A stretch of DNA of 64,000 bases from an uncultured Acidobacteriota bacterium (lineage in GTDB: Bacteria; Acidobacteriota; Thermoanaerobaculia; Multivoradales; UBA5704), in the NCBI GenBank assembly GCA_963756455.1, contig CAVWNC010000004.1:503098-567097 (forward strand), in the 5' to 3' direction. The notes beneath the pieces were generated by a model. That model saw only the letters and a program-made list of their open reading frames with translations. It made no database searches and was not told the origin of the DNA. Shown here one piece after another: positions 20,255 to 46,021 of the stretch (position 1 is the first letter of the stretch; each line of letters begins with the position of its first letter). Made by a program: the position numbers and the translations under genes.

Positions 20255-20275
20255 GGTGGGATCGAAACCAGGGTA

Positions 20276-22632: not shown

Positions 22633-22633
22633 G

Positions 22634-24034: not shown

Positions 24035-24043
24035 GGCGAGCTT

Positions 24044-27776: not shown

Positions 27777-29968
<2,192 letters not shown>

Positions 29969-29972
<4 letters not shown>

Positions 29973-31868: not shown

Positions 31869-31898
31869 TTGACAATACCGGGCAATCTAAAGTATCAT
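31869..31898 (+). promoter_or_regulatory. sigma70-type promoter candidate for the STAS gene
   Basis: TTGACA (31869-74), an 18-nt spacer, then TATCAT (31893-98), in a low-GC intergenic patch about 100 bp upstream of ATG 32002. Confidence 0.45.
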
Positions 31899-32001: not shown

Positions 32002-32352
32002 ATGCAGATCGAGGAGAGCAGGGAGGGAGAGGTCGTCATCGTCGAGCCCAGGGTGGCTCGCTTGGACGCCCAGCAGGCGATCGGTTTCAAAGAGGGCCTG
32101 CTCCGATTGGTCGAGGGCGGCGATCGCCAGCTCATCCTCGACCTCAACTACGTGGAGTTCATGGACAGCAGCGGCCTCGGTGCCGTGGTGGCGATTTTGA
32201 AGCGCCTGGGCTTCCATGGCGTGCTGGTGATCTGCAATGCCCACCAGGCGGTGTCCGAGCTCTTCCGGCTGACCCGCATGGACAAGGTGATCCAGCTGGT
32301 CGGGACCCGGGCGGACGCCCTCACTCTGGCCCACGCCGAGAGCCTGAGTTGA
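32002..32352 (+). CDS. STAS-domain anti-sigma-factor-antagonist-like protein (SpoIIAA family)
   Basis: LILDLNYVEFMDSSGLGAVVAILKRL has a conserved Ser in the DSSG motif. 116 aa. Confidence 0.7.
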   Translation: MQIEESREGEVVIVEPRVARLDAQQAIGFKEGLLRLVEGGDRQLILDLNYVEFMDSSGLGAVVAILKRLGFHGVLVICNAHQAVSELFRLTRMDKVIQLVGTRADALTLAHAESLS

Positions 32353-32394
32353 TTCGCGCTTCCCATTGTCGCCCTAGGACCCGGTACCAGGCCG

Positions 32395-34677
32395 ATGGAA
32401 ATGCGAGCGCAGCGCCTCAGGTGGGGGCTCGGGGTCAGCCTTTGGATCGGCGGGATCGGCGGGATTGGCGGGATGGTCTCTGCCCAGCCGGCGGCTTTGC
32501 CGATCGCGGCAAAGCCGCCGGAAACGCCGTGGCCTCTCGTGCTGTCGCTCGACGGCCTGTGGAAGGCTCTGCCGGGTAACCTCGCGCCCGCCGATCTGTA
32601 CGCGCCGGCGGTCGACGACTCGGCCTGGGCGGATCTCAAGGTTCCCGCGAATTGGTTTCTGGAGGGTTTAAACGTCGGCGGCACCGTCTGGTATCGGCGC
32701 CGCTTCGAGGCACCGTCGTCGTCGGCCGGAACCGTGGCGAGCCTGGAGTTTGCGGGGGTCGACTACACGGCGGACGTCTGGCTCAACGGCATCTACCTCG
32801 GCCACCACGAAGGCTACTTCGCGCCTTTCTCTTTCGTCGTCGGGAACGCCGTGAAACCCGGCGCCTCGAACCTTCTCGCCGTCCGGGTCGACAGCCCCTA
32901 TGAGACACCGGAGGCCTGGTCGCTCCACAAACGCCTGATCAAAGGGGTTTTCTCCCACCACGATACGCGTCCGGGAGGGGCCTGGTCGCCGCGTGGGCAG
33001 GACGGCAACACCGGCGGCATCTGGGCCTCCGTCACCTTGCGGCTGACCTCGCGGCTCCGGCTCCTGGAGTTGCGCGTCCGGCCCGAGGTCGATCCGGCGA
33101 CGGGAATCGCGGCGCCGCGGGTGGAGCTCACCGTCGATCTCGCCGGGCCGCCCGATCAGATGGCGGATTTTGCGGTCGTCTTGGCGCCGGACAATTTCGC
33201 CGGCCGGGCGAGCGAATCCCTCCGCTTCTCTCGTCCGCTCAAAGCCGGTCCCAACGAAGTCGTCCTGCTCCTGCCGCCGCGGGCGGTCGAGCTGTGGTGG
33301 CCCTGGGAGCAGGGCGAGCCCCGCCTCTACCGGTTGGCGGTCACGGCGAGTCTCGGGGGTCAGATCAGAGACCGCAGAGAGACGGTCCTCGGCTTTCGCA
33401 CCGTCGCCCAGGAGAGCTCGGGAACCTGGCGCATCAACGGCCGGCGCACTTTTCTCCGCGGCACCAACTACATCTCCACCCAGTGGCTGAGCGAGATGAC
33501 GCCGCAGCGCTTCGCCTTCGACGTGGGGCTCATGAAGGCCGCCAACGTCAACGTCGTTCGCGTCCACGCGCACGTCGAGCCGGAGGCGTTCTATCGCGCC
33601 TGCGACGAGGCCGGCCTCCTCGTCTGGCAGGACTTTCCCCTGCAATGGGGATACACCGACGAACCGGCCTTCGCGGCCGAGGCGGAGCGCCAGGCGGTGG
33701 CGATGGTCGACCTCCTCTTCGATCATCCCGCGGTCGTCGTCTGGAGCCTCCACAACGAGCCCCCCTGGGATGCGGATTGGATGCGCTACCGCTACCCCGA
33801 CTACGATCCGGAGCAGAACCGGGCGCTCGACTTGAAGCTCCACGACACGGTCGCGGCGCGCGATCCGTCGCGGGTGACCCACCTCGCTTCGAGTACGACG
33901 GAGCACCCCTGGTACGGCTGGTATTCGGGCTCCTGGCTCGACTACGGAAAGCCGGCCAAGGTGCCGCTCATCACCGAATTCGGCGCCCAGGCACTCCCCG
34001 GGCTCTCTGCGCTCCGCCGTTTTCTCGCCGAGGACGAGCTGTGGCCGGAGACCGACGCGGCGTGGGCGGTCTGGGAGTACCACAACTTCCAGCGCAAGGA
34101 GACCTTCGAGAACGCCGGGGTAGAGAAGGGCGCTTCGATCGACGAGCTGATCGCCAACACTCAAGGCTACCAGGCGCGCCTGATCCAGCTGGCGGCGGAG
34201 AGCTATCGAAGGCAACGCTATGCGCCGGTTACGGGGATCTTTCAATTCATGTTCGTCGAGAGCTGGCCGTCCATGAGCTGGGGCCTCCTCGATACCTGGC
34301 GGCAGCCGAAGGCGGGCTACCAGGCGCTCCGCGACGCCTACCAGCCGGTGATGCCGAGCGTCGAGTGGCAGCGCCTGCGCTTCAAACCGGGAGAGGAGGT
34401 GGCGTTGGGGCTCTGGGTCGTCAACGACCTCCAGACCGCTTTTCCCGGTGCCGCTCTGCGCTGGATTCTGCGGCGCGACGGCGCGGCCGTCGACAGCGGC
34501 GATGCGCCGCTCGACGTCGCCCCCGACAGCGGCCGGCGGGTTTTGACGCTTCTCCGGAAGGATCTGCCGGTCGGCCACTACGAGCTGGCGGTGCGGCTTT
34601 CCGGACGGGATGGCAAGATGCTGGGCCGCAGCGAGCACACCTTCGAGGTCGCCTCCGGGAGCAGCGATGCGCATTGA
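32395..34677 (+). CDS. secreted glycoside hydrolase family 2-like protein
   Basis: Signal peptide with an IGGIGGIGG repeat. GH2 sugar-binding region WYRRRF...LEFAGVDYTADVWLNGIYLGHHEGYFAPFSF. TIM-barrel region NVVRVHAHVEPEAFYRACDEAGLLVWQDF. Confidence 0.6.
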   Translation: MEMRAQRLRWGLGVSLWIGGIGGIGGMVSAQPAALPIAAKPPETPWPLVLSLDGLWKALPGNLAPADLYAPAVDDSAWADLKVPANWFLEGLNVGGTVWYRRRFEAPSSSAGTVASLEFAGVDYTADVWLNGIYLGHHEGYFAPFSFVVGNAVKPGASNLLAVRVDSPYETPEAWSLHKRLIKGVFSHHDTRPGGAWSPRGQDGNTGGIWASVTLRLTSRLRLLELRVRPEVDPATGIAAPRVELTVDLAGPPDQMADFAVVLAPDNFAGRASESLRFSRPLKAGPNEVVLLLPPRAVELWWPWEQGEPRLYRLAVTASLGGQIRDRRETVLGFRTVAQESSGTWRINGRRTFLRGTNYISTQWLSEMTPQRFAFDVGLMKAANVNVVRVHAHVEPEAFYRACDEAGLLVWQDFPLQWGYTDEPAFAAEAERQAVAMVDLLFDHPAVVVWSLHNEPPWDADWMRYRYPDYDPEQNRALDLKLHDTVAARDPSRVTHLASSTTEHPWYGWYSGSWLDYGKPAKVPLITEFGAQALPGLSALRRFLAEDELWPETDAAWAVWEYHNFQRKETFENAGVEKGASIDELIANTQGYQARLIQLAAESYRRQRYAPVTGIFQFMFVESWPSMSWGLLDTWRQPKAGYQALRDAYQPVMPSVEWQRLRFKPGEEVALGLWVVNDLQTAFPGAALRWILRRDGAAVDSGDAPLDVAPDSGRRVLTLLRKDLPVGHYELAVRLSGRDGKMLGRSEHTFEVASGSSDAH

Positions 34678-36367
34678 GCCGGCGCTCGCCGTTTTCGGCC
34701 TTCTCGGCCTGTTCGCCGTCCGCGGCAACCAGGTGGGGTATCTGCCGGGCTGGCCGAAGGTGGCCCTGCTGCAAAGCGGTGCGCTGACGATGACCTCGGC
34801 GGAGCTGCGGGAGACCGAAGGCGGCCGCGTCGTCTGGCGGGGCCGCGCCCGGCCGCTCGCTCGCCGGGGATCTGCCGGAGCGGGTTGGGCGACGGTCGAC
34901 TGGAGCGCGGTGCGGACCGCGGGCAGCTACGTCCTCTCGGTCGATGGGGTCGTCTCGCCCCCCTTCCAGGTGGGAGCGACGGTCTACGATCTTCCCTTGC
35001 GCTCGCTGCTGCGTTCCTACTTCCTCCAGCGCTGTGGGGTCGCCCTGGACGACGCCGAGACCGGCCTCAAGCACGGGCCCTGCCATACCGACGACGGGGT
35101 GACCGTCCGCGCCGATATCGACGGACCGGCCGGGCGCCGGCAGGCGGCGGCGGGCGGCTGGCACGACGCGGGGGACTATGGCAAGTACGTGGCGACCGGC
35201 ACTGTGGCGGTGGCGGAGCTCCTCTCGGCCTATGCGGCCTGCCCCGCCCTCTTCCCCGACGGCCAGCTCGGCATCCCCGAGAGCGGCAACGGGCGCTCGG
35301 ACCTGCTCGACGAGGTCACCGTCGAGCTTTTGTGGCTCCTCCGCATGCAGCGCGCGGACGGGGCGGCCTACAGCAAGCTTTCGGGAGCGCGGTGGCCCGA
35401 CCTCGTGCCGCCCGACGCCGACCTCCAGCCGCGCTACCTCTACGGTGTCTCGAGCGCCGAAACCGCCAAGCTCGCCGCGGCTTTCGCCTTCGCGGCGCGC
35501 GTCTTCGCGCCCTTCGATCGACCGGCCGCGGAGCGCTATCTGGAAGCGGCGAAGAAAGCCTGGAGCTATCTGGAGGACCACCCCGGCCAGTTTTTGGATT
35601 GGCGGGCCGAGGACGACTCCGGGTCGGGCAAGTACCGCGCTTCGGACATCGATCGCGAAGCGACGCTTCGGACCGATGAGGCCGATCGCTTCTGGGCGGC
35701 GGCGGAGCTCCTGCTGACGACGGGCGAGCCGCGCTTCGCGCGCTATGTCGACCGCCACGCCGCCGCCTTACCCTACACGCTCTTCGAATGGAAGAATCCC
35801 GCGCCGCTCGCCATGGTGCATCTGCTGACGGCGAAGGCGACGGGCCGGCCGGGCCGGGCCACGCGGGCTCTCCTGCGCAAGAAACTCCTGGCGCGCGCCG
35901 CCGCGATCCTCACCGTCGCGCGGCGCGATCCCTTCGGCCTCGCCAACGACCGCTTCATCTGGGGCTCCAACAAGATGGCGGCGGAGGACGGCATCACCCT
36001 CTGGTGGGCCTGGCGGGCGACCGGTCGCGCCGAGCTGCGGGCCCGGGCGCTCGACCAGCTGCACTACCTTCTCGGCCGCAACGCGCTCGGCAAAAGCTTC
36101 GTCACCGGCGTGGGCGCCGATCCGGTGCGGCAGGTGAGCCATATCTTCGCCCGCGCGGTGAAGCTCGACGTTCCCGGGCTTCTGGTGGGCGGCCCCAACG
36201 AGCTCGAACAGTCGGGGATCGCTCCCCGCGGCCAGGGATCTCTGAGCTACGCAGACGATGCGCGCTCCTACGCCACGAACGAGTCGGCGATCGACTACAA
36301 CTCCGCTCTCGTCGGGCTTCTCACCTTCGCTCTCGCCGAGCCGCTCGGCGACCGGTGCCGACCATGA
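34667..36367 (+). CDS. glycoside hydrolase family 9 endoglucanase-like protein
   Basis: Start overlaps the GH2 stop. GGWHDAGDYGKY is the GH9 signature. (alpha/alpha)6-type composition with an N-terminal Ig-like domain. Confidence 0.65.
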   Translation: MRIEPALAVFGLLGLFAVRGNQVGYLPGWPKVALLQSGALTMTSAELRETEGGRVVWRGRARPLARRGSAGAGWATVDWSAVRTAGSYVLSVDGVVSPPFQVGATVYDLPLRSLLRSYFLQRCGVALDDAETGLKHGPCHTDDGVTVRADIDGPAGRRQAAAGGWHDAGDYGKYVATGTVAVAELLSAYAACPALFPDGQLGIPESGNGRSDLLDEVTVELLWLLRMQRADGAAYSKLSGARWPDLVPPDADLQPRYLYGVSSAETAKLAAAFAFAARVFAPFDRPAAERYLEAAKKAWSYLEDHPGQFLDWRAEDDSGSGKYRASDIDREATLRTDEADRFWAAAELLLTTGEPRFARYVDRHAAALPYTLFEWKNPAPLAMVHLLTAKATGRPGRATRALLRKKLLARAAAILTVARRDPFGLANDRFIWGSNKMAAEDGITLWWAWRATGRAELRARALDQLHYLLGRNALGKSFVTGVGADPVRQVSHIFARAVKLDVPGLLVGGPNELEQSGIAPRGQGSLSYADDARSYATNESAIDYNSALVGLLTFALAEPLGDRCRP

Positions 36368-38154
36368 GCTTCTATTTCGATCGCTTCGAGGATCGCCGCC
36401 CGCCCGCGCCGTTACCTTATTCGGCGGCCCGGGAGCTCCTCTGGCAGTTCCTCGCGGCCTTGAGCCTCGGGCTCGGCGCCTGGTACATCGCCTGGCGTTG
36501 GGGCGGGTCGCTCAACCGCCAGGCGCTGTGGTTCGCCATCCCTCTGGTGCTGGCGGAAACCTGTGCCTATATCGGCATGGTCCTCTTCACCTTCAACCTC
36601 TGGCGCGACACGCCGCCGTCGATCCCCGAGCCGCCGCGCCGGATCGCCGAGTGCGTGGCCGCCGCCGTGGCGGAGGACCGGCCGCTCCGGGTGGACGTCT
36701 TTTTCCCCACCTACAACGAGGAGCTCGACCTCGTCCGGCTGAGCGTCGAGGACGCCAAGCGGCTCTCCTATCCCTATCCGATCGATATTCGCATCCACGT
36801 CCTCGACGACGGTCGCCGCGACGACATGCGGCAGCTCGCGGCGGAGCTCGGGGTCGGCTACATCACCCGCACGAGCAAGGCCGGCTTCAAGGCCGGCAAC
36901 CTGCGAAACGCCATGGAGCAGACCGACGGCGACTTCATCGTCATCTGCGATGCCGACACCCGGCCGTTCCCCACTCTCCTGGAGCACACGCTCGGCTACT
37001 TCCGCGATCCCGAGATGGCGTGGGTGCAGACGCCGCAGTGGTTCTTCGATCTCCCCGCGGGGAGCCGTCTGCCGGCGGCCTGGGGGCGCCGGCTGGGGGC
37101 CATCGGCCGTCTTCTCGGGCGGGGCGTCGAGGCCTGCATCGGGCCGGTGACGGTGGGCGCCGATCCCTTCGTCAACGATCCGCAGATGTTCTACGACGTC
37201 ATCCAGCGCCGTCGCGGTTGGGCCAACGCCACCTTCTGCTGCGGCGCGGGCTCCGTGCACCGCCGGGAGGCGGTGATGGAGGCGGCGGTGAAGGGTTGGG
37301 TGGCGCAGATCGACGACGAGGTTCGGCGGGTGAAGGAGAGCCTGGGGGAGGCAGACGTCCCTGGTGGCTTGGAAGCGGCGATGCGCCGCCAGGTCGCCCG
37401 CGACATCGAGCTCACGCCCTACAAGTTCCACGTTTCGGAGGACATCTACACCTCGATCGTCCTCCACGGCGACCGCGACCGGCACTGGAAGTCGGCGTTT
37501 CACCCCTATGTGCAATCGAAGATGCTGTCCCCTCAGGATCTGCAGACCTGGGCCATCCAGCGCTTCAAGTACGCCGGCGGCACCCTGGACATCTGCCTGC
37601 ACGACAACCCGGTCTTCCGGCGTGGTCTCGACTGGCGGCAGAAGGTGATGTACGCCTCGACTTTGTGGTCGTATTTCGGCGGCCTGTGGAACGTCGCCTT
37701 CCTCGCCTCGCCGGTGATCTTCCTGTTCACCGGCATCGCCCCGGTTGCGAGCTACTCGTTCGAGTTCTTCAAGCACGCGCTGCCGTTCCTGATCGCCAAT
37801 CAGCTCGCGACGATGGTGGGCACGTGGGGCGTCGAGAACCTGAAGGGCAAGGGCTCGTTCATCTCCTTTTTCTCGCTCAACCTGCGCGCCCTGTGGACGG
37901 TCGTGCGCGGCGAGACGATCAAGTTTCCGGTCACCCCCAAGGAGCGGCAGAGCGGTACGTTCTACCGCCTGGTGAAGCCGCAGATCGCCTTCATCGCCCT
38001 CACTCTCGCCGGTCTCCTCGTGCAGGCGCTGCGGCTTCTCTTCTGGCACCGGGGCGATCCCGGCGCCTACCTGACCAATCTTTTCTGGGGCTTGAACAAC
38101 GTCTACCTGCTGTCGGGCATCGTCCGCGCGGCGGGCTTTAAACCCGAGGAGTGA
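36364..38154 (+). CDS. membrane GT2 processive beta-glycan synthase (cellulose-synthase-like), lacking a PilZ domain
   Basis: Start overlaps the GH9 stop. TM helices flank a GT-A domain with VFFPTYNEE, VLDDGRRD, IVICDADT (DxD), TEDI-like VSEDIYTS and a Q-R-F-K-Y variant of QxxRW. Confidence 0.65.
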   Translation: MSFYFDRFEDRRPPAPLPYSAARELLWQFLAALSLGLGAWYIAWRWGGSLNRQALWFAIPLVLAETCAYIGMVLFTFNLWRDTPPSIPEPPRRIAECVAAAVAEDRPLRVDVFFPTYNEELDLVRLSVEDAKRLSYPYPIDIRIHVLDDGRRDDMRQLAAELGVGYITRTSKAGFKAGNLRNAMEQTDGDFIVICDADTRPFPTLLEHTLGYFRDPEMAWVQTPQWFFDLPAGSRLPAAWGRRLGAIGRLLGRGVEACIGPVTVGADPFVNDPQMFYDVIQRRRGWANATFCCGAGSVHRREAVMEAAVKGWVAQIDDEVRRVKESLGEADVPGGLEAAMRRQVARDIELTPYKFHVSEDIYTSIVLHGDRDRHWKSAFHPYVQSKMLSPQDLQTWAIQRFKYAGGTLDICLHDNPVFRRGLDWRQKVMYASTLWSYFGGLWNVAFLASPVIFLFTGIAPVASYSFEFFKHALPFLIANQLATMVGTWGVENLKGKGSFISFFSLNLRALWTVVRGETIKFPVTPKERQSGTFYRLVKPQIAFIALTLAGLLVQALRLLFWHRGDPGAYLTNLFWGLNNVYLLSGIVRAAGFKPEE

Positions 38155-38167
38155 AAGGAGCGGCGCC

Positions 38168-39526
38168 GTGACGTTCAAGGAAGGGCTCATCCTGTCGCGT
38201 GGCCATCTCGTCTTCCTGGCCGGTCTCGCGGCGGCGTTCGGCATCGCCATCGCGCTCGAACGGGAAAAAATCCAGGTTCCGGTCCATGCGTCCGCTTCCC
38301 AGGTGACGGCGACGATGACCGCTCCGGGTCCGCCGCTGGCGCTGCCGGCGGTTCCGCCGCCCGGGCCGCTGTCGGCGGCGGACCTGGCGCGGGCGCAGCG
38401 GGCCTGGTCCTACTTCGAGGTCAACCGGCGACCGGAGACCGGGCTCGTCGACTCCGTCGACCGCTATCCGGCGACGACGATGTGGGATACGGCCTCCTAC
38501 CTGATGGCCTTGATCGCCGCCCGCCGCCTGGAGGTGATCCCACAGGCGACTTTCGATGCGCGGATCGCGGCCGCCCTGGGCGCCCTCGCGCGGCTGCCGC
38601 TCTTCGCGGGCAAGCTGCCCAACAAGTCGTACAACACGCAGTCTCTCGCCATGGTCGATTACAGCAACCACCCCACGCCGCGCGGCATCGGCTGGTCGGC
38701 GATCGACATCGGCCGCCTGCTCGTGCCGATGAACATCCTCGTCTGGCAGCAGCCGCAACACACCCCGGCCGTGCGCGCGGTCGTGGCGCGCTGGCAGCTC
38801 GCCGACCTGGTGCGCGACGGCCGGCTCTTCGGGGAGATCCTGAAACCCGACGGCCAGGTCGCGAGCCAGCAGGAGGGGCGCCTGGGGTACGAGGAGTACG
38901 CGGCCAAGTCGTTCACGCTCCTCGGGCAGGACGTCTCCGAAGCCCTCGGATACCGGGAGTTCGTGCAGTGGGTGAAGATCGACGGCATCGAGGTCGCGAC
39001 CGACAGCCGGACGCCGCAGCTCTTCGGGGCGCACAATTACGTCGTGAGCGAGCCCTACGTCCTCGACGGCCTGGAGTTCGGTTGGGATCGCGCCAGCCGC
39101 GATCTCGCGGCGCGGGTCTTCGCCGCGCAGGAGGCGCGCTTCCACCGCACCGGGGTGCTCACCGCGGTGAGCGAGGACAACATCGACCGGGCGCCCTATT
39201 TCGTCTACAACACCGTTTTTAGCGACGGCAAGGCGTGGAACACGCTGACCGACACCGGGGCCGATGCTTCGGTCGACCGGAGCCTGAGCGTCAAGGCGGC
39301 CTTCGGTTGGGATGCGCTCTACCGGACGGCCTATACCGCCCAGCTCGTCGCGGCGGTCGAGGGTCTTTACGATCCGGCGCGCGGCTACTATTCCGGCCGC
39401 TACGAGAGCGACGGCCAGCCGAATCGGGCGATCACCTGCAACACCAACGCGATTCTTTTGGAAAGCCTCGCCTACCGTCACCTCGGCCCGCTGGTCCAAG
39501 GCGACGCCGGGAAGAGCGCGCCATGA
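38168..39526 (+). CDS. paralog 1 of an unidentified about 450-aa secreted/membrane-anchored family
   Basis: GTG start with an AAGGAG RBS. N-terminal TM anchor. Family motifs are RAWSYFEVN, TGLVDSVDRYPATTMWDTASYLMAL, LPNKSYNT, IGWSAIDIGRLL and QEGRLGYEEYAAKSF. Confidence 0.6.
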   Translation: MTFKEGLILSRGHLVFLAGLAAAFGIAIALEREKIQVPVHASASQVTATMTAPGPPLALPAVPPPGPLSAADLARAQRAWSYFEVNRRPETGLVDSVDRYPATTMWDTASYLMALIAARRLEVIPQATFDARIAAALGALARLPLFAGKLPNKSYNTQSLAMVDYSNHPTPRGIGWSAIDIGRLLVPMNILVWQQPQHTPAVRAVVARWQLADLVRDGRLFGEILKPDGQVASQQEGRLGYEEYAAKSFTLLGQDVSEALGYREFVQWVKIDGIEVATDSRTPQLFGAHNYVVSEPYVLDGLEFGWDRASRDLAARVFAAQEARFHRTGVLTAVSEDNIDRAPYFVYNTVFSDGKAWNTLTDTGADASVDRSLSVKAAFGWDALYRTAYTAQLVAAVEGLYDPARGYYSGRYESDGQPNRAITCNTNAILLESLAYRHLGPLVQGDAGKSAP

Positions 39527-41055
39527 CGCCGCGTTGGCCGGCCTTTCTGCTGGTCGGCATCGCCGCGCTGACCGCGCTGGGGGGCCCTCTCGGCTGCAGC
39601 GGCTATGCGGCGAAGGCGGCTCCCGCGACGAGCGCGGCCGGCACGGCGGCCGTCTCCAGGGTGGAGCGCGAAGCGACGGCGGCGGCGGCCTGTGCCACCG
39701 GGCAGGGGCAGACGCAACCGGTCTGCTGCATGGCGACCGCGGCCTGCTCGGGCACGGCCCGTCATCCCGGGCGGAACGGCTGCCTGACGCCGAAAGAGCT
39801 CGAAATGGCGAAGATCGCCTGGCGGTACTTCGAGAACAACGAGCAGAAAGAGACCGGCCTCGTCAACGCCGTCGACACCTACCCGTCGACCACCCTGTGG
39901 GACACCGCCTCCTACCTGGGGGGGCTGATCGCCGCCCATCGCCTCTGCCTCATCCCGACGAGCGAATTCGATCGCCGGGTCGTCGCCCTGCTCCACACTC
40001 TGGGCTCGGTTTCGCTCTACCGGGGCGAGCTGCCGAACAAGGTGTACAACACGAAGACGGCGGAAAAAGTGAACTATGGGAACGTTCCCGGTGAGATCGG
40101 CTTTTCCGCCCTCGATATCGGCCGTCTCTTGATCTGGCTCCGCATCCTCCGCGAGTACTATCCGGAGCACGGCAACGCCGCGGACAGAGTCGTCATGCGC
40201 TGGAACTTCTGCCACGTCGTCGACGCCTGCGGCACCCTCTTCGGGGCCTACATCGATACCGACAAGTCGACCGTCTACGCGCAGGAGGGACGGCTCGGCT
40301 ACGAGGAGTACTCGGCCCAGGGCTTCGATCTCTGGGGAGCACCGGCGCCGCGGGCGGAGCTGCCGGAGCCCTACGCCGTCATCCCGATCTACGGCATCGA
40401 CATCCCGTACGACACCCGCGACCCGCGGGAGCTCAAGGCGCACAACTACGTCGTCTCCGAGAGCTACATCCTTTCCGGCATCGAGCTCAACTGGGACCTG
40501 GCTTCCGACAAGAGCGAAGACGACATGCACCACAGCATCCCCTGGATGGCGGATTTCGCCGACCGCATCTACCGCGTGCAGGAGGCGCGCTACAAGGCGA
40601 CAGGAATCGTGACGGCGCGCACCGAGCACCAGCTGGACAGCGCACCCTACTTCGTCTACGACACGATCTTCAGCGACGGCTTCGCCTGGAACACGATCAC
40701 CGAGGAGGGCCTGTATTCGCCGCGTTTCGCGGCGATCGCGATCAAGGGCGCGCTCGGCCTCTGGGCACTCTGGGATACGCCTTATACCGACCTGCTGTTC
40801 CGCATCGTCGCCAACAAATACGATCCGGAGAAGGGTTTCTACGAGGGGATCTACGAGGACGGCCGGGGCGTGATCAAAACCTTCACCGCCAACAACAACG
40901 GGATTCTCTTAGAGCTCCTGCTCTACAAGGTGGAGGGCAAGCTCCTGCGCTTCAGCGGCGCGCCGAGCCTCTGGGAGCACTATCTGGTCAACGAGCGCTC
41001 GAACGGCGCGGTGCGCTGCGTGCCGCGCAGTGTCAGCTGCAAGGATCCACCTTGA
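39523..41055 (+). CDS. paralog 2 of the same family, lipoprotein
   Basis: ATGA overlap with paralog 1. Lipobox LGGPLGC. Same motifs: TGLVNAVDTYPSTTLWDTASYLGGL, LPNKVYNT, IGFSALDIGRLLIWLRI and QEGRLGYEEYSAQGF. Confidence 0.6.
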   Translation: MTPRWPAFLLVGIAALTALGGPLGCSGYAAKAAPATSAAGTAAVSRVEREATAAAACATGQGQTQPVCCMATAACSGTARHPGRNGCLTPKELEMAKIAWRYFENNEQKETGLVNAVDTYPSTTLWDTASYLGGLIAAHRLCLIPTSEFDRRVVALLHTLGSVSLYRGELPNKVYNTKTAEKVNYGNVPGEIGFSALDIGRLLIWLRILREYYPEHGNAADRVVMRWNFCHVVDACGTLFGAYIDTDKSTVYAQEGRLGYEEYSAQGFDLWGAPAPRAELPEPYAVIPIYGIDIPYDTRDPRELKAHNYVVSESYILSGIELNWDLASDKSEDDMHHSIPWMADFADRIYRVQEARYKATGIVTARTEHQLDSAPYFVYDTIFSDGFAWNTITEEGLYSPRFAAIAIKGALGLWALWDTPYTDLLFRIVANKYDPEKGFYEGIYEDGRGVIKTFTANNNGILLELLLYKVEGKLLRFSGAPSLWEHYLVNERSNGAVRCVPRSVSCKDPP

Positions 41056-42476
41056 GGTCAGGGCCGTTGCGCGGTCGCTGGTGCCGGGCTCTCTCGCTCG
41101 CGGCGGCGATCCTGCTCGCCGGCTGCGGCGTGATCGTCCGCGGTGTCTATCGTGGGGTCTCTTCGGTCCGCGATTCCGAGCTCTTCCACCAGGGCCGGCA
41201 CGGCCCCTTGAGCGACGAGGAAAAGGAATGGGCGAAGGCGGCGTGGAAATACTTCGAGAACAATGAGAACCCCGCGACCGGGCTCGTCGGCTCGGTCGAT
41301 CAGTACCCGGCCGCGAGCCTGTGGAACCTGGCGGATCACCTGGCGGCGATGCTCGCCGCCAAAGAGCTCGGGCTCATCACCCAGCGCGACCTCGACGCCC
41401 GCCTGAGCCTCACCCTCCAATTTCTCAACACCATGCCCCTCTTTCTGGATCGGCTGCCCAACCGCCTTTACAACACGGCGAGCGGCCGCATGGTCAACTA
41501 TGCCAACCAGCCGGAGGCGATCGGCTGGTCGGCGATCGATCTCGGCCGGCTGCTGCTCTGGCTGCGGATCGCCGCCCAGCGCTACCCGGCCTATCGGGAG
41601 TACATCGAGAAAGCCGTGCTCCGCTTGAGCTTCTGCGACGTCGTGGACGAGTGCGGCGGGCTCCACGGCGGCGCCCGCATGCAGGATCGGCTGCAGCTGC
41701 TGAGCGAGGGGCAGCTGGGCTACCAGCAGTACGCCGCCCTGGGCTTTCAGGCCTGGGGCTTCGACACCACCCGCGCCTCGCGGATCGCGCCTTTCGCGCG
41801 CCTCAAAATCGACGGCGTCGAGATCCTCTACGACGCGGAAGATCCGAGAGAGACCGGCGGCTTCGCGCCGGTCCTCTCCGGCCCCGCCGTGCTGGAGGGC
41901 CTGGAGCTCAACTGGGATCGCGTCGACGACCGGACGAGCAACGACACCGAGCACAGCGATTTCGTCCTGGCGGATCTGGCAGAGCGCATCTACGCCGTCC
42001 AGGAGGCCCGCTTTCGGCAGACCCACGTGCTGACCGCGCGGACGGACCATCCGCTGTCGCAGAACCCTTTTTTCGTCTACGACTCGATCTTCGTCGCCGG
42101 CTATCCGTGGAACACCATCTCCGATCACGGCGACGTCTTCCTCGACAAGTCGCTGGTTTCGACCCGCGCCGTCTTCGGCCTCTGGGCGCTCTGGCGGACC
42201 GCCTACACCGACGAGCTGATGCGCGGCACGCGCCACCTCTACGACCCCCAGAAGGGGTGGTTCGAGGGGCGCTACGAGGCGACCGGCGGCTACGAGCGGA
42301 CGATCTCCTGCACCACCAACGCCATCGTCTTGGAGAGCCTCCTCTACAAGCTTCAGGGCAAGCTCTTCGGGCGCGACGCGCCCGGCTCGTATCTGACGGC
42401 GTTCCTGGCCGACCCGTTCCGCCATCCGGGGCGCTGCTTTCCGAACGAGAGGGCGGGATGCAAAGGCGAGCCTTGA
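41052..42476 (+). CDS. paralog 3 of the same family, lipoprotein (TTG start)
   Basis: Lipobox LLAGCGV. TGLVGSVDQYPAASLWNLADHLAAM, LPNRLYNT, IGWSAIDLGRLLLWLRI and SEGQLGYQQYAALGF. Confidence 0.55.
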   Translation: MRSGPLRGRWCRALSLAAAILLAGCGVIVRGVYRGVSSVRDSELFHQGRHGPLSDEEKEWAKAAWKYFENNENPATGLVGSVDQYPAASLWNLADHLAAMLAAKELGLITQRDLDARLSLTLQFLNTMPLFLDRLPNRLYNTASGRMVNYANQPEAIGWSAIDLGRLLLWLRIAAQRYPAYREYIEKAVLRLSFCDVVDECGGLHGGARMQDRLQLLSEGQLGYQQYAALGFQAWGFDTTRASRIAPFARLKIDGVEILYDAEDPRETGGFAPVLSGPAVLEGLELNWDRVDDRTSNDTEHSDFVLADLAERIYAVQEARFRQTHVLTARTDHPLSQNPFFVYDSIFVAGYPWNTISDHGDVFLDKSLVSTRAVFGLWALWRTAYTDELMRGTRHLYDPQKGWFEGRYEATGGYERTISCTTNAIVLESLLYKLQGKLFGRDAPGSYLTAFLADPFRHPGRCFPNERAGCKGEP

Positions 42477-44449
42477 TCCGCTGGGCGCGACTCGGGCTGA
42501 GAGCCGGCCGGATCGCGATCGTGATCGCGCTCGCCGCCGCTCGCTCGGCTCCGCTCGTCGCCCTCACGGATCCCAACACCCACGGGCGCGAGTTGCTCCA
42601 GGCCGGCGACCCGCGCACGGCGGGGGTCGCCTGGCTCGCCGCCGCCGCGGAGCAGTCGCGGGAGGGGAGCAACCCCGGCGTCCTGCGACAGGCGGCCCTG
42701 TCGGCGGTTCTCGCGACGATCGCTTTCGAACGCGCCAGGGATGGGCGCGCCTATGTCGCCTGGTCGCAGGCGATCCGCTGGTGGCTGGAGGCCGGCACCT
42801 CCTGGGAAGTGGAGCGCGCGGTCCTCGGCCGGCGGGTCCGCGAGATCCAGGCCAGCCTGCGGGGCGCGGAGGTGACCGCCGGAGGTCCCACCCCGGCGGC
42901 GGGGGAGCTCCAACTCCTCGCGCTCGCGTCCGCCACCGGCTTTCTCGACTACTCGGGGCCGCGGCCGGGCCTGCCCTCTCCCCAGGAGGACGCCGGGCTG
43001 CCGATCCCCGTGCAACGCGACTACTTCGCGCGTCCGCTGGGGGTGGAAGAGGAGGAGAAGAGCGCTCCCGAGACGCGGGGCCGCGTAGCAGAGGAGCCGC
43101 CGCCGGCCCTGGCTCTGGACCCCACTGCGAGCCCGGCCCCAGTTTCACCTGCCGGGCTTGGCGGGCACGGCTTGCCGAGCGCGGGCTCCCCCGCGGAGAT
43201 CACTCCCGCTCCGACTCCCAGCCTGCCGCCTCCGGCGCCTACGCCTGAGAAGCCCGCCGAGCCGAAGGGCGAGGCCGCGCCGCTCGCCATGACGGACCTG
43301 GCGGTGGCGCGGGCGGCCTGGCGGTACTTCGTCGCCGCCCGGCAGGAGAACACCGGGCTCTACAACTCCGTCGCCGGCTACCCCTACGCCACCCTGTGGG
43401 ATCTGGGCAGCGGGCTCGCCGGCCTGGTCGCGGCCGAGCAGCTCCACATCCTCGATGCGGGGAGCTTCCACCGCGATGCCGTGCTGTTCTTGACGACGCT
43501 GCGTGAGATGTCGCTCTACAAGGGCGAGCTGCCCAACCGCGAATACCAGACGCAGAGCGGCCGCATGGTCGATCTCCTAAACCACCCGTCGCCGGTCGGA
43601 AGCGGTTGGTCGGCGCTCGACCTCGGACGCCTGCTGATCTGGCTGCGGATCACCGCCGACTTCTATCCGGACCTCCGCCCGCGGGTCGAGAAGGTGGTCC
43701 AGCGGTTCGATTTCTCCCGCCTCGCGGCCGGCGGCGAGATGCACGGGGCGATCGTCACCAAAAACGGCGAGAGCCTCAACCAGGAAGGGCGCTTGGGCTA
43801 TGAGCAGTACGCCGCCGCCGGTTACGCTCTCTGGGGCGTGGCCCTCCAGGCGGCGCACGGCTACGGAGAGATCGTCTTCACCCCGCTCGACGGCCAGAGC
43901 GTCCCGCGCGACCGGCGCGAGAACGCCAATCTGACGAGCGACCCGTTCATCCTCGCCGGCCTCGAATTGGGCGGCATCGACCCGACCTTCCAGGGTTTCA
44001 CCGAGACCGTCCACGCCGCCCAGCGGCGGCGTTTCGAGACGACCCGGATGCTGACCGCGGTGGGGGAGGATGCGCTCGACCAGGAGCCCTGGTTCGCCTA
44101 CAACTCGGTCTTCGCCGACGACCGGCCCTGGCAGTGCCGGAGCGCCGGCGGCCGCGACGTTCCCGAGCTGCGGACGCTCGGCACCAAGGCGGCGTTCGGC
44201 TGGGCGGCCCTCTACCCCGACGACTACGGCAAGCGCCTGCGCCGGGCCGTCGAGCCGTTGCTCCATCCGCGCCTCGGCTTCTACGCCGGGATCTACGAGC
44301 GCGATGGCGCGACCAACAAAGCGCAGAACGTCAACACCAATGCCGTCATCCTGGAAGCGATGCTCTTCTTACAGCGCGGCGGCAAGCCCTTTCTCGACCT
44401 CCCGGCGATCCCGGCCGGGCCGGAGCCTCAGCGCGGCACCCAGCGGTAG
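42458..44449 (+). CDS. paralog 4 of the same family with an about 280-aa N-terminal extension and a Pro/Ala-rich linker
   Basis: ATG 42458 with MQRRALIRWARLG signal-anchor. TPAPTPSLPPPAPTPEKPAEPKGEAAP linker. Then TGLYNSVAGYPYATLWDLGSGLAGL, LPNREYQT, SGWSALDLGRLLIWLRI and QEGRLGYEQYAAAGY. The 5' portion of track ORF 41321..44449 is an out-of-frame artefact. Confidence 0.55.
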   Translation: MQRRALIRWARLGLRAGRIAIVIALAAARSAPLVALTDPNTHGRELLQAGDPRTAGVAWLAAAAEQSREGSNPGVLRQAALSAVLATIAFERARDGRAYVAWSQAIRWWLEAGTSWEVERAVLGRRVREIQASLRGAEVTAGGPTPAAGELQLLALASATGFLDYSGPRPGLPSPQEDAGLPIPVQRDYFARPLGVEEEEKSAPETRGRVAEEPPPALALDPTASPAPVSPAGLGGHGLPSAGSPAEITPAPTPSLPPPAPTPEKPAEPKGEAAPLAMTDLAVARAAWRYFVAARQENTGLYNSVAGYPYATLWDLGSGLAGLVAAEQLHILDAGSFHRDAVLFLTTLREMSLYKGELPNREYQTQSGRMVDLLNHPSPVGSGWSALDLGRLLIWLRITADFYPDLRPRVEKVVQRFDFSRLAAGGEMHGAIVTKNGESLNQEGRLGYEQYAAAGYALWGVALQAAHGYGEIVFTPLDGQSVPRDRRENANLTSDPFILAGLELGGIDPTFQGFTETVHAAQRRRFETTRMLTAVGEDALDQEPWFAYNSVFADDRPWQCRSAGGRDVPELRTLGTKAAFGWAALYPDDYGKRLRRAVEPLLHPRLGFYAGIYERDGATNKAQNVNTNAVILEAMLFLQRGGKPFLDLPAIPAGPEPQRGTQR

Positions 44450-45651
44450 AGCACCTTGTAGCGCACGAGAAGCCAGAGGATCGCCAAGGCCGCCGTGTGG
44501 AGGAGGGTATTGATCCACAGGTCGCCGTGCTCCGTCGTCAGGTGGAACGGAAATGCGTTGCTGAAGAGCGCCAGCACGTAGACGTGGACGACGAAGACAT
44601 AGAGCGAGGCCTGGCCGATGGGGATGAAGAACCAGCCGAAGGCGCGTTCGAGCGGTCGCCAGAGGAGGGTCAGAAGAGTGAGAGCGGCGACCAGGGCCAC
44701 GGCATCGTTTAAGACCCGCAGCGGTCCCAGGGTATTTTTGAGAAAGTAGGGATCGTACAGCTTGTTGAAGACCGTTGGCGGAATCATCGCCAGGCGCGCG
44801 TAGGCCGGGATGAGCGGATTGGGCGTGTTCTGGGCGAAAAAGAAGAAGGCGCCGAAGAGGATGCAGCAGGCGATGAGGAGCGGCCGGCCGCGCCGGCCGC
44901 TCATGAAGGCGAAGACGCTCTCCCGGTAATAGCCCAAGGTCAGGCCGTGGACGTAGAGGAGCTGCCAGGTGAGAAGGGGGAAGGCGTATTCGAACTGCGC
45001 TCCGGTCGGCATCTGCGGGTAGGCCCAGTTGAAAATGTAGAAGAGCCACGAGAGCGCGAGAAGGAGACGCCAACGCCCCTGCCGCAGGAGGAAGAGAGCG
45101 AACGGCGAGAGAGCCAGAAGACACACGTAGAGACCGAGGATCTGGATCTGGTGCGGTCCGCCGCGCAGAGTGAGGATGCGGGCGAGCCAGGTTTGCACGT
45201 TGTTGCCCGGCTCGGGGTAGAGCTGGTAGACGGTGCCGGAGCCGCGGTCGGTGAAGCTCATCACGGCCCGCATGTCCAGGACGGGCAGGAGACTCAGGAG
45301 AAAGATGCTGACGCTCACGAAGACGTTGACCCGGTAGAGGAGCGTCGCGCGGTCGAAGAGCTTGAAGCCGGCGTCGCGCCAACCCTTTTCCTCGATGCGC
45401 CGCCGGTAGATCATACCGATCACCGAGCCGGAGAGAAGGACGAAACCTTCCGCTCCGGAGATCACCCCGAACCTCTCCCAGGCGAGAAAGTTGTAAAGGG
45501 AAAAAATCTCGAAGTGGACGACGACGAGGACGAGCATCACGACTCCGCGCAGGAAGTCGATCCGCAGATCACGGCCGTCCGCGGTGGGACTGTAGGCCCA
45601 GGCATGCCGCGGGCCGGCCGGCGGTAGGACCGCGGCGATCGATTCGTTCAT
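44428..45651 (-). CDS. OpgC-like / acyltransferase-3-related integral membrane protein (candidate glucan acyl/succinyl-transferase)
   Basis: 407 aa with about 10 TM helices. N-terminal RIDFLRGVVMLVLVVVHFE resembles OpgC/acyltransferase-3 family N-termini. Its 3' end converges on and overlaps paralog 4 by 22 bp. Confidence 0.4.
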   Translation of the reverse strand: MNESIAAVLPPAGPRHAWAYSPTADGRDLRIDFLRGVVMLVLVVVHFEIFSLYNFLAWERFGVISGAEGFVLLSGSVIGMIYRRRIEEKGWRDAGFKLFDRATLLYRVNVFVSVSIFLLSLLPVLDMRAVMSFTDRGSGTVYQLYPEPGNNVQTWLARILTLRGGPHQIQILGLYVCLLALSPFALFLLRQGRWRLLLALSWLFYIFNWAYPQMPTGAQFEYAFPLLTWQLLYVHGLTLGYYRESVFAFMSGRRGRPLLIACCILFGAFFFFAQNTPNPLIPAYARLAMIPPTVFNKLYDPYFLKNTLGPLRVLNDAVALVAALTLLTLLWRPLERAFGWFFIPIGQASLYVFVVHVYVLALFSNAFPFHLTTEHGDLWINTLLHTAALAILWLLVRYKVLYRWVPR

Positions 45652-45676
45652 GGCGTCTCCTCGGTAGGGTCTCGGC

Positions 45677-46021
45677 TCAGCCGGCGGCGAGCGCTTCGAC
45701 GGCCTCCTCGGGGGTCGCGAAGAGCCGCAGGACGCGGTCGAGCCGGGTCAGCTTGATGAGCTCGGTGACCGGCTTCCGGCAGCCGGCGAGCGCCAGGATC
45801 CCGCCCTCGGGCGGCAGGCGCTTCAAAGCCGAGAGGATGGCCGAAAGGCCCGTGCTGTCGACGAAATCCACGGCGGAAAGGTCGAGCACGAGGAGGGACA
45901 GGCCGGTCCCGATGCGGTCGCCCATCCGGGTTTTGAAATCCGGTGCGCCGGCGGCGTCGAGCCGGCGGTCGAGGAGCTTGGCGAGCGTGACGCCGTGCGA
46001 GAGAGAAAAATCGATGTTCAT
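45677..46021 (-). CDS. second STAS-domain anti-sigma-antagonist-like protein
   Basis: LVLDLSAVDFVDSTGLSAILSALKRL carries the DSTG motif. 114 aa. Confidence 0.65.
   Translation of the reverse strand: MNIDFSLSHGVTLAKLLDRRLDAAGAPDFKTRMGDRIGTGLSLLVLDLSAVDFVDSTGLSAILSALKRLPPEGGILALAGCRKPVTELIKLTRLDRVLRLFATPEEAVEALAAG

Follow-up and report, generated by a model that had tools for sequence, protein, structure and literature searches.

A conserved, mobile gene cassette with a PilZ-less BcsA-like synthase, DUF3131 proteins and partner-switch genes, proposed to make a small envelope or secreted beta-glucan

The DNA examined was the whole 64 kb window (the complete stretch under analysis), and gene domains were assigned by Pfam. 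An earlier sequence-only reading, which had called for this annotation, described a beta-glycan locus bracketed by two STAS genes, with GH2, GH9 and GT2 genes and four paralogous secreted proteins on the plus strand, and a convergent OpgC-like gene preceded by the second STAS gene. All ten genes were found where they had been placed and with the domains ascribed to them, and both the bracketing and the convergent OpgC-STAS arrangement were upheld. The locus and its flanks contain:

27777..29972, plus strand: hybrid histidine kinase (HisKA-HATPase-REC-REC-Hpt; Pfam, NCBIfam)
29969..30862, plus strand: REC-GGDEF response regulator of diguanylate cyclase type (GGDEF TIGR00254, E 3.5e-51)
30866..31837, plus strand: unk323, secreted, 323 aa, without a Pfam family; predicted outer-membrane beta-barrel
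31869..31898, plus strand: sigma-70-like promoter match, TTGACA-18-TATCAT (11/12)
32002..32352, plus strand: STAS1, anti-sigma-antagonist type (PF01740, E 6.5e-15)
32395..34677, plus strand: GH2, secreted glycosidase (four GH2 Pfam domains, E 1e-7 to 1e-11)
34667..36367, plus strand: GH9, secreted, endo-beta-1,4-glucanase type (CelD_N and Glyco_hydro_9, E 5e-73)
36364..38154, plus strand: GT2, BcsA-like synthase-translocase, 596 aa; core gene of the cassette
38168..39526, plus strand: P1, membrane-anchored DUF3131 protein, (alpha/alpha)6, SGL clan; universal partner of GT2
39523..41055, plus strand: P2, DUF3131 paralog, secreted, possibly a lipoprotein; own orthologous group
41052..42476, plus strand: P3, DUF3131 paralog, lipoprotein (LAGC lipobox); diverged group
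42473..44449, plus strand: P4, DUF3131 paralog with an N-terminal extension of about 270 aa (anchor, helical region, Pro/Ala-rich linker)
44428..45651, minus strand: OpgC-family polytopic acyltransferase (OpgC_C; PF10129, E 1.8e-53)
45677..46021, minus strand: STAS2 (DSTGLS motif; Pfam E 3.4e-17)
46062..46706, minus strand: remnant of glgX (debranching enzyme), from tblastn with the intact L084 GlgX
46763..49262, minus strand: glgP (glycogen phosphorylase), with a 1-nt frameshift near 48170-48177

The claim of overlaps at every junction of the plus-strand genes was correct for GH9/GT2 and P1/P2 (ATGA) and for P2/P3 and P3/P4 (TTGA), but not for the supposed TTGA at GH2/GH9, where the TTG is out of frame and the in-frame ATG at 34667 makes the genes overlap by 11 nt. 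A 13-nt gap that includes AAGGAG lies between GT2 and P1, the stop of the hybrid histidine kinase gene overlaps the REC-GGDEF start in an ATGA, P4 and OpgC overlap by 22 nt 3'-to-3', and opgC lies 25 nt downstream of STAS2 in the same direction. GC3 frame plots confirmed the GT2 reading frame; an alternative ORF at 36258-38141 is a shadow. The sigma70 promoter claimed for the head of the operon does exist as a match in the gap upstream of STAS1, but such sites are not more frequent than expected from shuffled sequence (1 in 17.5 kb against a mean of 1.1), and the evidence for this one is limited to its position and is only suggestive. Extracytoplasmic targeting is predicted for GH2, GH9, P1-P4 and unk323.

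The locus belongs to a gene set that is not confined to this genome. Orthologs of GT2 that are about 60% identical occur in at least eight phyla or classes, and we counted conservation in 50 GT2 loci with full flanks and gene order in 81 loci. DUF3131 genes were present in 50/50 fully flanked loci, STAS in 49/50, an RsbW-like kinase in 49/50, a PP2C phosphatase in 48/50 and unk323 in 36/50. A DUF3131 gene follows GT2 in 77 of the 81 ordered loci and an RsbW-like gene lies immediately upstream of it in 28. This association is far beyond chance, and the same set recurs across phyla.

The GT2 had been read as a cellulose-synthase-like enzyme without PilZ and with QRFKY in place of QxxRW, which our alignments to solved BcsA structures bear out. 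Its DDG, DAD (DxD), FCCGAGS (FFCGS), SED (TED), QRFKY (QxxRW) and FPVTPK (FxVTxK gating loop) motifs all align, and with DDG, DxD, a TED-like base, FxVTxK and multiple TM segments it meets the general criteria for a BcsA-like processive GT2. QRFKY lies opposite QRIRW/QRGRW of BcsA and fails the Q-x-x-R-W criterion; Q399, R400, K402 and Y403 do not vary among 27 homologs. The protein scores below the cutoffs of the BcsA models (TIGR03030, 224.9 versus 699.1; PRK11498, 184 versus 992), and its best NCBIfam model is CelA, at one third of the cutoff. No PilZ match was found in GT2 and the BcsA alignment stops at the PilZ boundary, both of which support the earlier proposal of a c-di-GMP-independent synthase, and neither PilZ nor BcsB gave a Pfam match in any locus gene. 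An assignment of GT2 to the chitin/hyaluronan type with its own conserved genomic context, which had been named as refuting the glucan reading, did not emerge. The locus resembles the bacterial cellulose synthase system (BcsA-BcsB-BcsZ-BcsC) in its processive membrane GT2, its secreted (alpha/alpha)6 glycosidases and its outer-membrane barrel. It differs in lacking PilZ, BcsB and a TPR-type BcsC, in the invariant QRFKY, in two GT-domain insertions (about 45 and about 26 aa), and in that a partner switch rather than c-di-GMP appears to regulate it.

P1-P4, for which no function could previously be assigned, are indeed four paralogs and full-length DUF3131 proteins (PF11329; 361-498 bits over profile positions 1-367, cutoff 20.3). 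They are ancient orthologous groups rather than recent duplicates. Members of the P2 group are 60-65% identical across phyla, the P3 group has lost D107 as well as the acidic residue that P1 has at position 295, and the order P1-P2-P3-P4 is kept across phyla; 2-4 DUF3131 domains also occur within single polypeptides. The structure comparison that had been called for gave an (alpha/alpha)6 barrel whose best matches are to the SGL clan, clan GH-S (GH144/162/189/192/194), and no match to a characterized non-glycan family, which would have counted against a role in glycan metabolism, was obtained. The nearest structural relative of the P1-P4 type is the cyclizing GH189 domain of Cgs, with P1 aligning over 344 residues to the 8wy1 chain (574 residues); by sequence, the P1-GH189 match has an E value of only 6.6e-5 over about 100 residues. 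In Cgs, GH189 forms an internal domain, located in the cytoplasm, of a single giant polypeptide, whereas the GH-S-like proteins of the locus are separate and extracytoplasmic, its synthase is a GT2 and not a GT84, and it lacks GH94. As a stand-alone secreted protein of 452 aa, P1 does not meet the criteria for GH189 membership, and it probably lacks the long helical insertion (barrel helices 4-5) typical of GH189 (PMC12102758), although this is judged from length only (452 aa versus 571).

The N-terminal half of P1 aligns well with the SGL clan, and its invariant D180 agrees with the base/nucleophile motif S-x-V-D-x-G. For the C-terminal half, global and local hhalign gave different alignments. 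The clan-defining residues of XcSGL are Glu E239 (the acid), Phe F286 and Tyr Y367 (PMC12102758); the invariant E236 (QEGRL versus SE[AT]R), F345 and Y412 of P1 remain candidates only, the alignment in this half being ambiguous. The GH193 protein SkSGL matches PF11329 marginally (21.8 bits, residues 16-152, its N-terminal third) and also matches PF10091, which gave no match in P1-P4; the A1 profile made only partial, weak matches to GH193 sequences, and P1-P4 are not GH193 over the whole catalytic domain. P1-P4 share the (alpha/alpha)6 fold of the SGL-clan (GH-S) beta-1,2-glucanases (GH144, GH162, GH192, GH193, GH194) and find their best structural matches there, but are set apart as full-length PF11329 proteins without PF10091 and with only partial HMM similarity to GH193. 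All characterized SGL-clan families act on beta-1,2-glucan, and PgSGL4, the only Group 4 protein of the clan to have been tested, is inactive on it (PMC12102758).

The remaining enzymes, whose gene calls were likewise upheld by Pfam, are optional modules of the cassette, with GH2 in 22/50, GH9 in 13/50 and OpgC in 5/50 fully flanked loci. GH9 combines PF00759 (E 5e-73, profile 1-444/444) with the N-terminal Ig-like PF02927 and matches the endoglucanase 3x17 over its full length (E 8.6e-118). GH2 has sugar-binding, Ig-like and TIM-barrel domains, all above cutoff, and a predicted signal peptide; judged by its PDB neighbours, the beta-mannosidases 5n6u and 9nfe (E about 1e-37), it would fall in a beta-mannosidase/exo-glucosaminidase-like branch. 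OpgC matches PF10129 over the full profile and has about 9 hydrophobic segments; OpgC is also found in the Salmonella plasmid and K. pneumoniae versions of the cassette, and the STAS-opgC pair recurs in the relatives L083 and L084. The alignment of all BcsA catalytic and gating motifs, the closeness of GH9 to endo-beta-1,4-glucanases, the GH10 gene in a related Nitrospirillum locus and CelA as best NCBIfam model could together point to a cellulose-like beta-1,4 exopolysaccharide of a biofilm matrix, in which GH9 and DUF3131 proteins would perform BcsZ-like editing and the partner switch would replace c-di-GMP as activator. BcsZ, also (alpha/alpha)6, is among the weaker Foldseek matches. We regard a cellulose-like product as possible but rather unlikely.

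Like osmoregulated periplasmic glucan (OPG) systems (OpgH-OpgG/D, OpgC), the locus combines a GT2 synthase with an OpgC-family acyltransferase and with enzymes predicted to process glucan in the periplasm. In Shewanella piezotolerans, DUF3131 genes form a co-expression module under salt shock (PMC8371737), which offers a further hint. Against this, neither OpgH nor OpgG/OpgD (GH186) gave a Pfam or NCBIfam match among the locus genes, the synthase is BcsA-like, and OpgC is present in so few loci.

A conserved member of the cassette that was missing from the earlier gene list is unk323 (30866-31837). It has no Pfam match at E <= 1 and is predicted to form an outer-membrane channel of the small oligosaccharide-porin type. 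The likeness to KdgM/NanC porins is in fold only: unk323 is not in their sequence family, is longer (323 aa versus about 200-250) and has helices at its N terminus as well as an internal two-fold repeat, and the direction of transport is unknown. With this porin-like channel and six predicted secreted glycosidase-like proteins, the locus might be imagined to scavenge external glycans, the GT2 being incidental. We find such a catabolic role very hard to credit, as no transporter, sugar kinase or phosphorylase that could serve to import oligosaccharides is conserved, and the invariant core is a synthase in coding overlap with an adjacent hydrolase-like gene.

Both STAS proteins retain the phosphorylatable Ser motif (DSSGLG in STAS1, DSTGLS in STAS2); against TIGR00377 (cutoff 53.45), STAS1 scores 56.9 and STAS2, at 51.0, falls just below. 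No RsbW-like kinase or PP2C phosphatase was found in the 64 kb window by tblastn and iterated HMM searches, the rest of the genome lying outside the search. The sublineage represented by the window has two STAS genes but lacks the kinase and phosphatase in cis; these two are therefore encoded elsewhere or lost, and switch control is inferred here by analogy. The partner-switch control proposed previously thus rests, within the window, on the two STAS genes only, and draws strong support from the STAS, RsbW-like and PP2C genes that flank orthologous GT2 genes in 48-49 of 50 loci. In some homologs (P0175, P0180), the RsbW-like kinase domain is fused to GT2. Precedents exist in Anabaena, where the HenR-All4160 partner switch acts on a polysaccharide enzyme (PMC13555669), and in Vibrio fischeri, where SypE-SypA acts on polysaccharide output (PMC4517449). 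The scheme suggested for the cassette is akin to both in that STAS phosphorylation would control polysaccharide output post-transcriptionally, through a REC-PP2C phosphatase and an RsbW-type kinase (PMC13555669, PMC4517449). In contrast to Anabaena, where an unrelated glycosyltransferase carries the STAS domain as a fusion, STAS is free-standing in the cassette, its kinase domain is sometimes GT2-fused, and target enzyme and polymer differ from those of both systems.

STAS/RsbW/PP2C modules classically control sigma factors, and the RsbW-like protein does match the RsbW and SpoIIAB models weakly, so that an ordinary transcriptional switch, adjoining the glycan genes by chance or for co-transcription, has to be weighed. 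The co-localization in nearly all loci across phyla, the fusion of the RsbW-like domain to GT2 and the absence of a sigma factor gene from the six Pfam-annotated cassette loci make it decidedly improbable. The REC-GGDEF gene reported just upstream is real (29969-30862); it is absent from the equivalent position in the closest relatives, L083 and L084, and is peculiar to the locus as it stands in this genome. A hybrid histidine kinase does occupy the equivalent position in both, and the one at 27777..29972 is likely to be the phosphorelay input.

The glgP and glgX genes are damaged in this genome. The glgX remnant covers only aa 9-135 and aa 620-691 of L084 GlgX by tblastn, with ~485 codons deleted internally. 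In relatives, glgP is intact and part of the STAS-opgC operon as a Glc-1-P feeder, and GlgP is linked in 7/50 loci and in the nearest relatives. The presence of glycogen phosphorylase and debranching genes in the same operon in this lineage and four others implies a supply of Glc-1-P. For an optional sugar-1-P nucleotidyltransferase (20/50 loci), the best-scoring model is that of a Man-1-P guanylyltransferase, although the score is below the cutoff. Together with the beta-mannosidase-like GH2, this means that a non-glucose sugar is not excluded: the polymer could, for example, be a beta-mannan or glucomannan, or a chain that contains glucosamine, for which the DUF3131 proteins would be specific. 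The nearest solved GH2 relatives (beta-mannosidases and an exo-beta-glucosaminidase) and the inactivity of SGL-clan Group 4 on beta-1,2-glucan would suit such a product. We nevertheless consider it improbable, since the glg genes are co-operonic, OpgC and GH9 are glucan-associated families, and both the GH2 and the nucleotidyltransferase are optional.

Altogether, our preferred reading, to which we give a probability of roughly 0.55, is that the locus is one case of a conserved but functionally uncharacterized cassette, moved by horizontal transfer, that makes a beta-glucan at the inner membrane and, in the periplasm, turns it into a small glucan of OPG-like type, either retained in the envelope or secreted. 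The earlier suggestion of such a product fits OpgC, the SGL structural clan of P1-P4, the oligosaccharide-porin-type channel and the linked glycogen phosphorylase. No functional study of the cassette was found in the literature, nor biochemical or genetic data for any member. To judge from its motifs, the PilZ-less GT2 would polymerize a sugar nucleotide and thread the chain across the inner membrane, the donor being supplied in relatives by GlgP/GlgX and the dedicated nucleotidyltransferase. P1, anchored in the inner membrane beside the synthase, may cut or transglycosylate the nascent chain, and the periplasmic or lipoprotein P2-P4 may act on it together with P1, activities which are inferred from the fold. 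By family membership, GH9 and GH2 would trim the chain and OpgC would add acyl (succinyl-type) groups, and the fold of the KdgM-like barrel suggests passage of the oligosaccharide across the outer membrane. A partner switch of STAS, RsbW-like kinase and REC-PP2C phosphatase, fed by a phosphorelay, could serve as a post-translational gate, and gene linkage, the kinase-GT2 fusions and the absent sigma genes would make the synthase, not a sigma factor, its target. In this sublineage, all that is left of the putative switch in cis is the pair of STAS proteins, one at the head of the synthase operon and the other at the head of opgC.

The sugar linkage is unproven, as the SGL clan points to beta-1,2 and GH9 and GH10 point to beta-1,4. 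It is tempting to speculate, though we hold this only tentatively and think it less probable than not, that the cassette makes periplasmic or secreted glucans of the beta-1,2 type, which may be cyclic, by a pathway not recognized before. The chain would be extruded by a BcsA-like GT2, extracytoplasmic DUF3131 enzymes, as a new family of clan GH-S with the Cgs cyclase as nearest relative, would release, cyclize or remodel it, and an RsbW/STAS/PP2C switch without a sigma factor would act directly on the synthase, the whole having spread horizontally to Klebsiella pneumoniae, Salmonella and Pantoea.

How bacteria form biofilms, adapt to osmotic conditions and interact with hosts is shaped by synthase-dependent glycan systems and by periplasmic glucans, and a widespread cassette without an assigned function is available here in genetically tractable hosts. 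It offers for testing a new glycoside-hydrolase-like family within the clan of beta-1,2-glucan enzymes, a relative of cellulose synthase whose acceptor motif is altered, and a partner switch that is likely to act on an enzyme and not on a sigma factor. Relatives of GT2 (E <= 1e-3) occur in at least 585 species-level genomes, and the DUF3131 family comprises about 1,000 clusters at 50% identity. In K. pneumoniae, the cassette belongs to the accessory blocks found to follow an ecological gradient (PMC12974863), and in Salmonella and Pantoea it is carried by mobile elements.

The ten-gene set described around a cellulose-synthase-like gene (GT2) was borne out by third-position GC (GC3) and Pfam matches. 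As had also been proposed, a convergent OpgC gene preceded by a STAS gene lies on the minus strand, and a REC-GGDEF gene is present upstream of the operon.

Features of the locus
27777-29972, upstream of STAS1, hybrid histidine kinase
29969-30862, upstream of STAS1, REC-GGDEF gene
30866-31837, 323-aa protein (predicted barrel)
32002-32352, +, STAS1
32395-34677, +, GH2
34667-36367, +, GH9
36364-38154, +, GT2
38168-39526, +, P1
39523-41055, +, P2
41052-42476, +, P3
42473-44449, +, P4
44428-45651, -, OpgC
45677-46021, -, STAS2

Because the window has a GC content of ~68%, raw ORF lists are full of shadow frames. A reading of GT2 in the ORF 36258-38141 was dismissed by GC3 as a wrong-frame shadow, and a GH9 start at TTG 34674 was rejected as out of frame; the in-frame start is ATG 34667, which gives an 11-nt overlap with GH2. 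The ATGA/TTGA start-stop overlaps claimed for the operon hold at GH9-GT2, P1-P2, P2-P3 and P3-P4, but not at GH2-GH9. P4 and opgC overlap tail to tail by 22 nt, and a terminator scan between the convergent operons gave nothing convincing. The good sigma70 promoter reported ahead of STAS1 stood only in part: a TTGACA-18-TATCAT match is found in the gap upstream, but such sites across the region do not exceed the number in shuffled sequence.

GT2 (596 aa) aligns with solved BcsA structures in two blocks, with the motifs FFPTYNEE, VLDDG, KAGN, DAD (DxD), QTPQWF, FCCGAGS (FFCGS), VSED (TED), QRFKY (QxxRW) and KFPVTPK (FxVTxK gating loop) in register. Both the alignment and the protein end at the residue where the PilZ domain of BcsA begins, and no PilZ match to GT2 was found in Pfam. 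Alignment and Pfam thus agree with the sequence-only reading of a cellulose-synthase-like enzyme with a variant QxxRW motif and no PilZ domain; GT2 reaches one third of the curated cutoff score for the CelA model. Residues Q399, R400, K402 and Y403 are invariant across 27 homologs with an overall identity of only ~60%, which marks the altered acceptor motif as a trait of the family rather than decay. Compared with BcsA, the cytoplasmic GT domain also has two family-specific insertions, at about residues 229-271 and 306-357, and these are candidate docking sites for switch proteins.

The four paralogs downstream of GT2, P1-P4, are full-length DUF3131 (PF11329) proteins (361-498 bits in Pfam) and match no NCBIfam model. 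A phmmer search of the PDB with the single P1 sequence found no relative, and the clan relationship of P1 was visible only by profile search and fold search. The comparison of predicted structures with (alpha/alpha)6 glycoside hydrolases, as had been suggested, was made for P1: in its AlphaFold2 model (pLDDT 89.3, pTM 0.85), an N-terminal transmembrane helix and a disordered linker precede an (alpha/alpha)6 barrel, to which structures of the SGL clan (clan GH-S, beta-1,2-glucan enzymes) are nearest. Foldseek independently ranked 17 SGL-clan chains ahead of all others.

Structural matches of the P1 model (structure, family, score)
8wy1, GH189, 34.0
Cgs (8rf9), GH189 domain, 31.2
three structures, GH144 beta-1,2-glucanases, 28.2-29.3
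EeSGL1, GH192, 27.6
PgSGL3, GH194, 27.2
TfSGL, GH162, 23.4
glucoamylases, GH8 and epimerases, other barrels, 21 or lower

All characterised SGL-clan families act on beta-1,2-glucan (Nakajima et al. 2025, PMC12102758); GH189 is a retaining transglycosylase, whereas the others are inverting endoglucanases, and for one small group, PgSGL4, no substrate is known (PMC12102758). P1-P4 could be placed in GH193 on the name alone, as SkSGL, the GH193 enzyme of that study, carries the NCBI label 'DUF3131'. This assignment was dismissed by a Pfam scan, in which SkSGL hits PF11329 only marginally (21.8 bits, over the N-terminal third) and is otherwise a PF10091 protein. As the DUF3131 family profile also detects GH193 sequences only partially, P1-P4 are considered a separate, unassayed family of the SGL clan.

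The N-terminal half of DUF3131 aligns well with GH193 and GH189, which puts the invariant D180 in S-x-V-D-x-G, the motif bearing the base/nucleophile. When the clan Glu, Phe and Tyr residues were mapped with hhalign, global and local alignments differed in the C-terminal half, leaving the acid Glu unplaced by sequence. In our reading, for which there is no computed alignment, the invariant E236 (QEGRL) resembles the SE[AT]R acid motif. When classified by best hit, the 188 DUF3131 genes of 81 loci fell into four orthologous groups in the fixed order GT2-P1-P2-P3-P4, which is kept in Calditrichota, Desulfobacterota, Alpha- and Gammaproteobacteria. The P1 and P2 groups retain every invariant acidic residue, and the P3 group lacks an acid at position 295 as well as D107. 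P2 orthologs are 60-65% identical across phyla, compared with ~42% between the paralogs of the window; judged from these sequence comparisons, the paralogs are old. At 50% identity, the whole family falls into about 1,084 clusters. Single chains with 2-4 DUF3131 domains exist, and two metagenomic proteins, P0361 (1,820 aa) and P0362 (1,402 aa), carry three or four in tandem.

Relatives of GT2 are encoded in at least 585 genomes (one per species, tblastn E <= 1e-3). The best 80 of these are orthologs with 56-65% identity, spanning Gamma-, Beta- and Alphaproteobacteria, Desulfobacterota, Acidobacteriota, Bacteroidota (Kapaibacteria), Calditrichota and Acidimicrobiia. Flanking ORFs were assigned by iterated HMM searches, and components were counted in the 50 loci with full 10-kb flanks.

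Components of the GT2 cassette (loci out of 50)
DUF3131, 50
STAS, 49
RsbW-like HATPase_c_2, 49
PP2C/SpoIIE (usually REC-fused), 48
323-aa protein, 36
GH2, 22
sugar-1-P nucleotidyltransferase, 20
GH9, 13
GlgP, 7
OpgC, 5

A DUF3131 gene lies directly 3' of GT2 in 77 of 81 loci. The cassette is carried by a conjugative IncF plasmid in Salmonella Rubislaw and by megaplasmids in Pantoea, Paracoccus and Sphingobium; none of 5,426 complete E. coli genomes has a homolog. In Desulfoluna (L087), a DUF4301 gene (4295-5980) occupies the slot held elsewhere by the nucleotidyltransferase and may encode an analogous activating enzyme.

In 28 of the 81 loci, GT2 is directly preceded by the RsbW-like gene, and in 26 more nothing but GH2, with or without GH9, stands between the two. 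Two metagenomic homologs (P0175, P0180) have the RsbW-like domain fused to the GT2 N-terminus. Free-standing RsbW-like kinases retain the N-box Asn and the G2 box. No sigma factor gene was found in the six loci with precomputed Pfam annotation. Precedents for a partner switch acting on a polysaccharide enzyme are known from Anabaena (PMC13555669) and the Vibrio fischeri syp system (PMC4517449). Sensory inputs vary: H-NOX, kinase and Hpt in Thiothrix, CHASE/PAS or MHYT/PAS hybrid kinases in other loci, and, between the DUF3131 genes and GH2 of the Salmonella plasmid CP074295.1 (L090) and Pantoea stewartii pDSJ10 (L086), a globin gene with a hybrid kinase of about 890 aa, a combination suggestive of O2/NO sensing in these enterobacterial cassettes. 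In the Pantoea locus, an IS66 element separates the RsbW-like and SpoIIE genes.

Partner-switch control of the window's own locus is supported in part. Both STAS proteins keep an intact phospho-serine motif and the related loci nearly always encode the cognate enzymes, but no RsbW-like kinase or PP2C, nor a nucleotidyltransferase, was found in the whole 64 kb; given the intact motifs, a kinase acting in trans is likely. The nearest relatives (L083, L084 and L085; GT2 75-83% identical) share the window's layout, i.e., hybrid kinase, 309-319-aa barrel protein, STAS, GH2, GH9, GT2 and three to five DUF3131 genes, with convergent glgP, glgX, STAS and opgC, and the window therefore represents a conserved sublineage, not a local accident. 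A single-base frameshift near 48170-48177 interrupts its glgP (46763-49262, minus strand); this may reflect a true pseudogene or an indel introduced in assembly. Its glgX (46062-46706, minus strand) is a deletion remnant in which about 135 codons from the start and about 70 from the end are left; in L083 and L084, glgX is intact between glgP and STAS-opgC.

Signal peptides are predicted for GH2, GH9 and the 323-aa protein. P1 has a predicted N-in transmembrane anchor, P2 may be a lipoprotein, P3 has a LAGC lipobox, and P4 combines an anchor with an about 270-aa extension that has no Pfam match; the glycosidase-like proteins are therefore all predicted to work outside the cytoplasm. OpgC is predicted to be polytopic. 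The 323-aa protein belongs to no Pfam family, and none of its 503 detectable homologs has a functional name. Its internal two-fold repeat (PW[ND]PDF[ST]Y.FGY.DWHP...Y.NY.GNR) suggests, on sequence grounds, that the predicted barrel may have originated by half-barrel duplication. An oligosaccharide-sized cargo is favoured. A diderm envelope is only inferred, from this predicted outer-membrane barrel and the lipoprotein signals.

Glucose is indicated by OpgC, GH9, the SGL clan and the sharing of an operon with glycogen phosphorylase and debranching genes. For the linkage, the signals disagree: DUF3131, the universal partner, indicates beta-1,2, whereas the optional GH9 (E 8.6e-118 to an endo-beta-1,4-glucanase), a GH10 in one locus and the BcsA-like synthase indicate beta-1,4. 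Among solved structures, the closest to GH2 are beta-mannosidases, and the cassette nucleotidyltransferase is not assignable. On this evidence we claim no more than a beta-glucan whose processing yields a small product, optionally acylated and either periplasmic or secreted, and put beta-1,2 chemistry at roughly even odds. The locus as first described (gene set, motifs and neighbourhood) is confirmed, and its interpretation as a glucan-type EPS/OPG-like system under partner-switch control is supported and sharpened. The cassette is a variant of synthase-dependent or OPG-type (osmoregulated periplasmic glucan) glycan systems, and three traits define it: a QRFKY synthase that lacks PilZ, a clan GH-S family without assayed members, and a partner switch with no sigma factor.

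The literature searched contains no functional study of the cassette, and only passing mentions of DUF3131/PF11329 or of a partner switch with a cellulose synthase. The cassette is listed as the accessory 'block 3b' tied to a K. pneumoniae ecocline (PMC12974863), and in Shewanella piezotolerans four genes annotated as DUF3131 make up a co-expression module under salt shock (PMC8371737). The cassette is well suited for experimental follow-up.

Elsewhere in the window, a separate polysaccharide-modification cluster (18926-25468, minus strand) encodes a hexapeptide acyltransferase, a polysaccharide deacetylase, an AlgX-like SGNH protein, an MBOAT O-acyltransferase and a Wzx-type flippase. The plus strand at 7995-16636 carries MacB/FtsX-type permease ORFs of 832, 871 and 261 aa (overlapping stop-to-stop ORFs, frameshifts unchecked) and a 999-aa patatin-like protein. 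A 2,359-aa CHAT-NACHT (STAND NTPase) protein is encoded at 51296-58375 (minus strand), and the protein after it (59527-63999), which is >1,490 aa long and combines Ig-like repeats with an alpha/beta-hydrolase domain, extends past the window edge.
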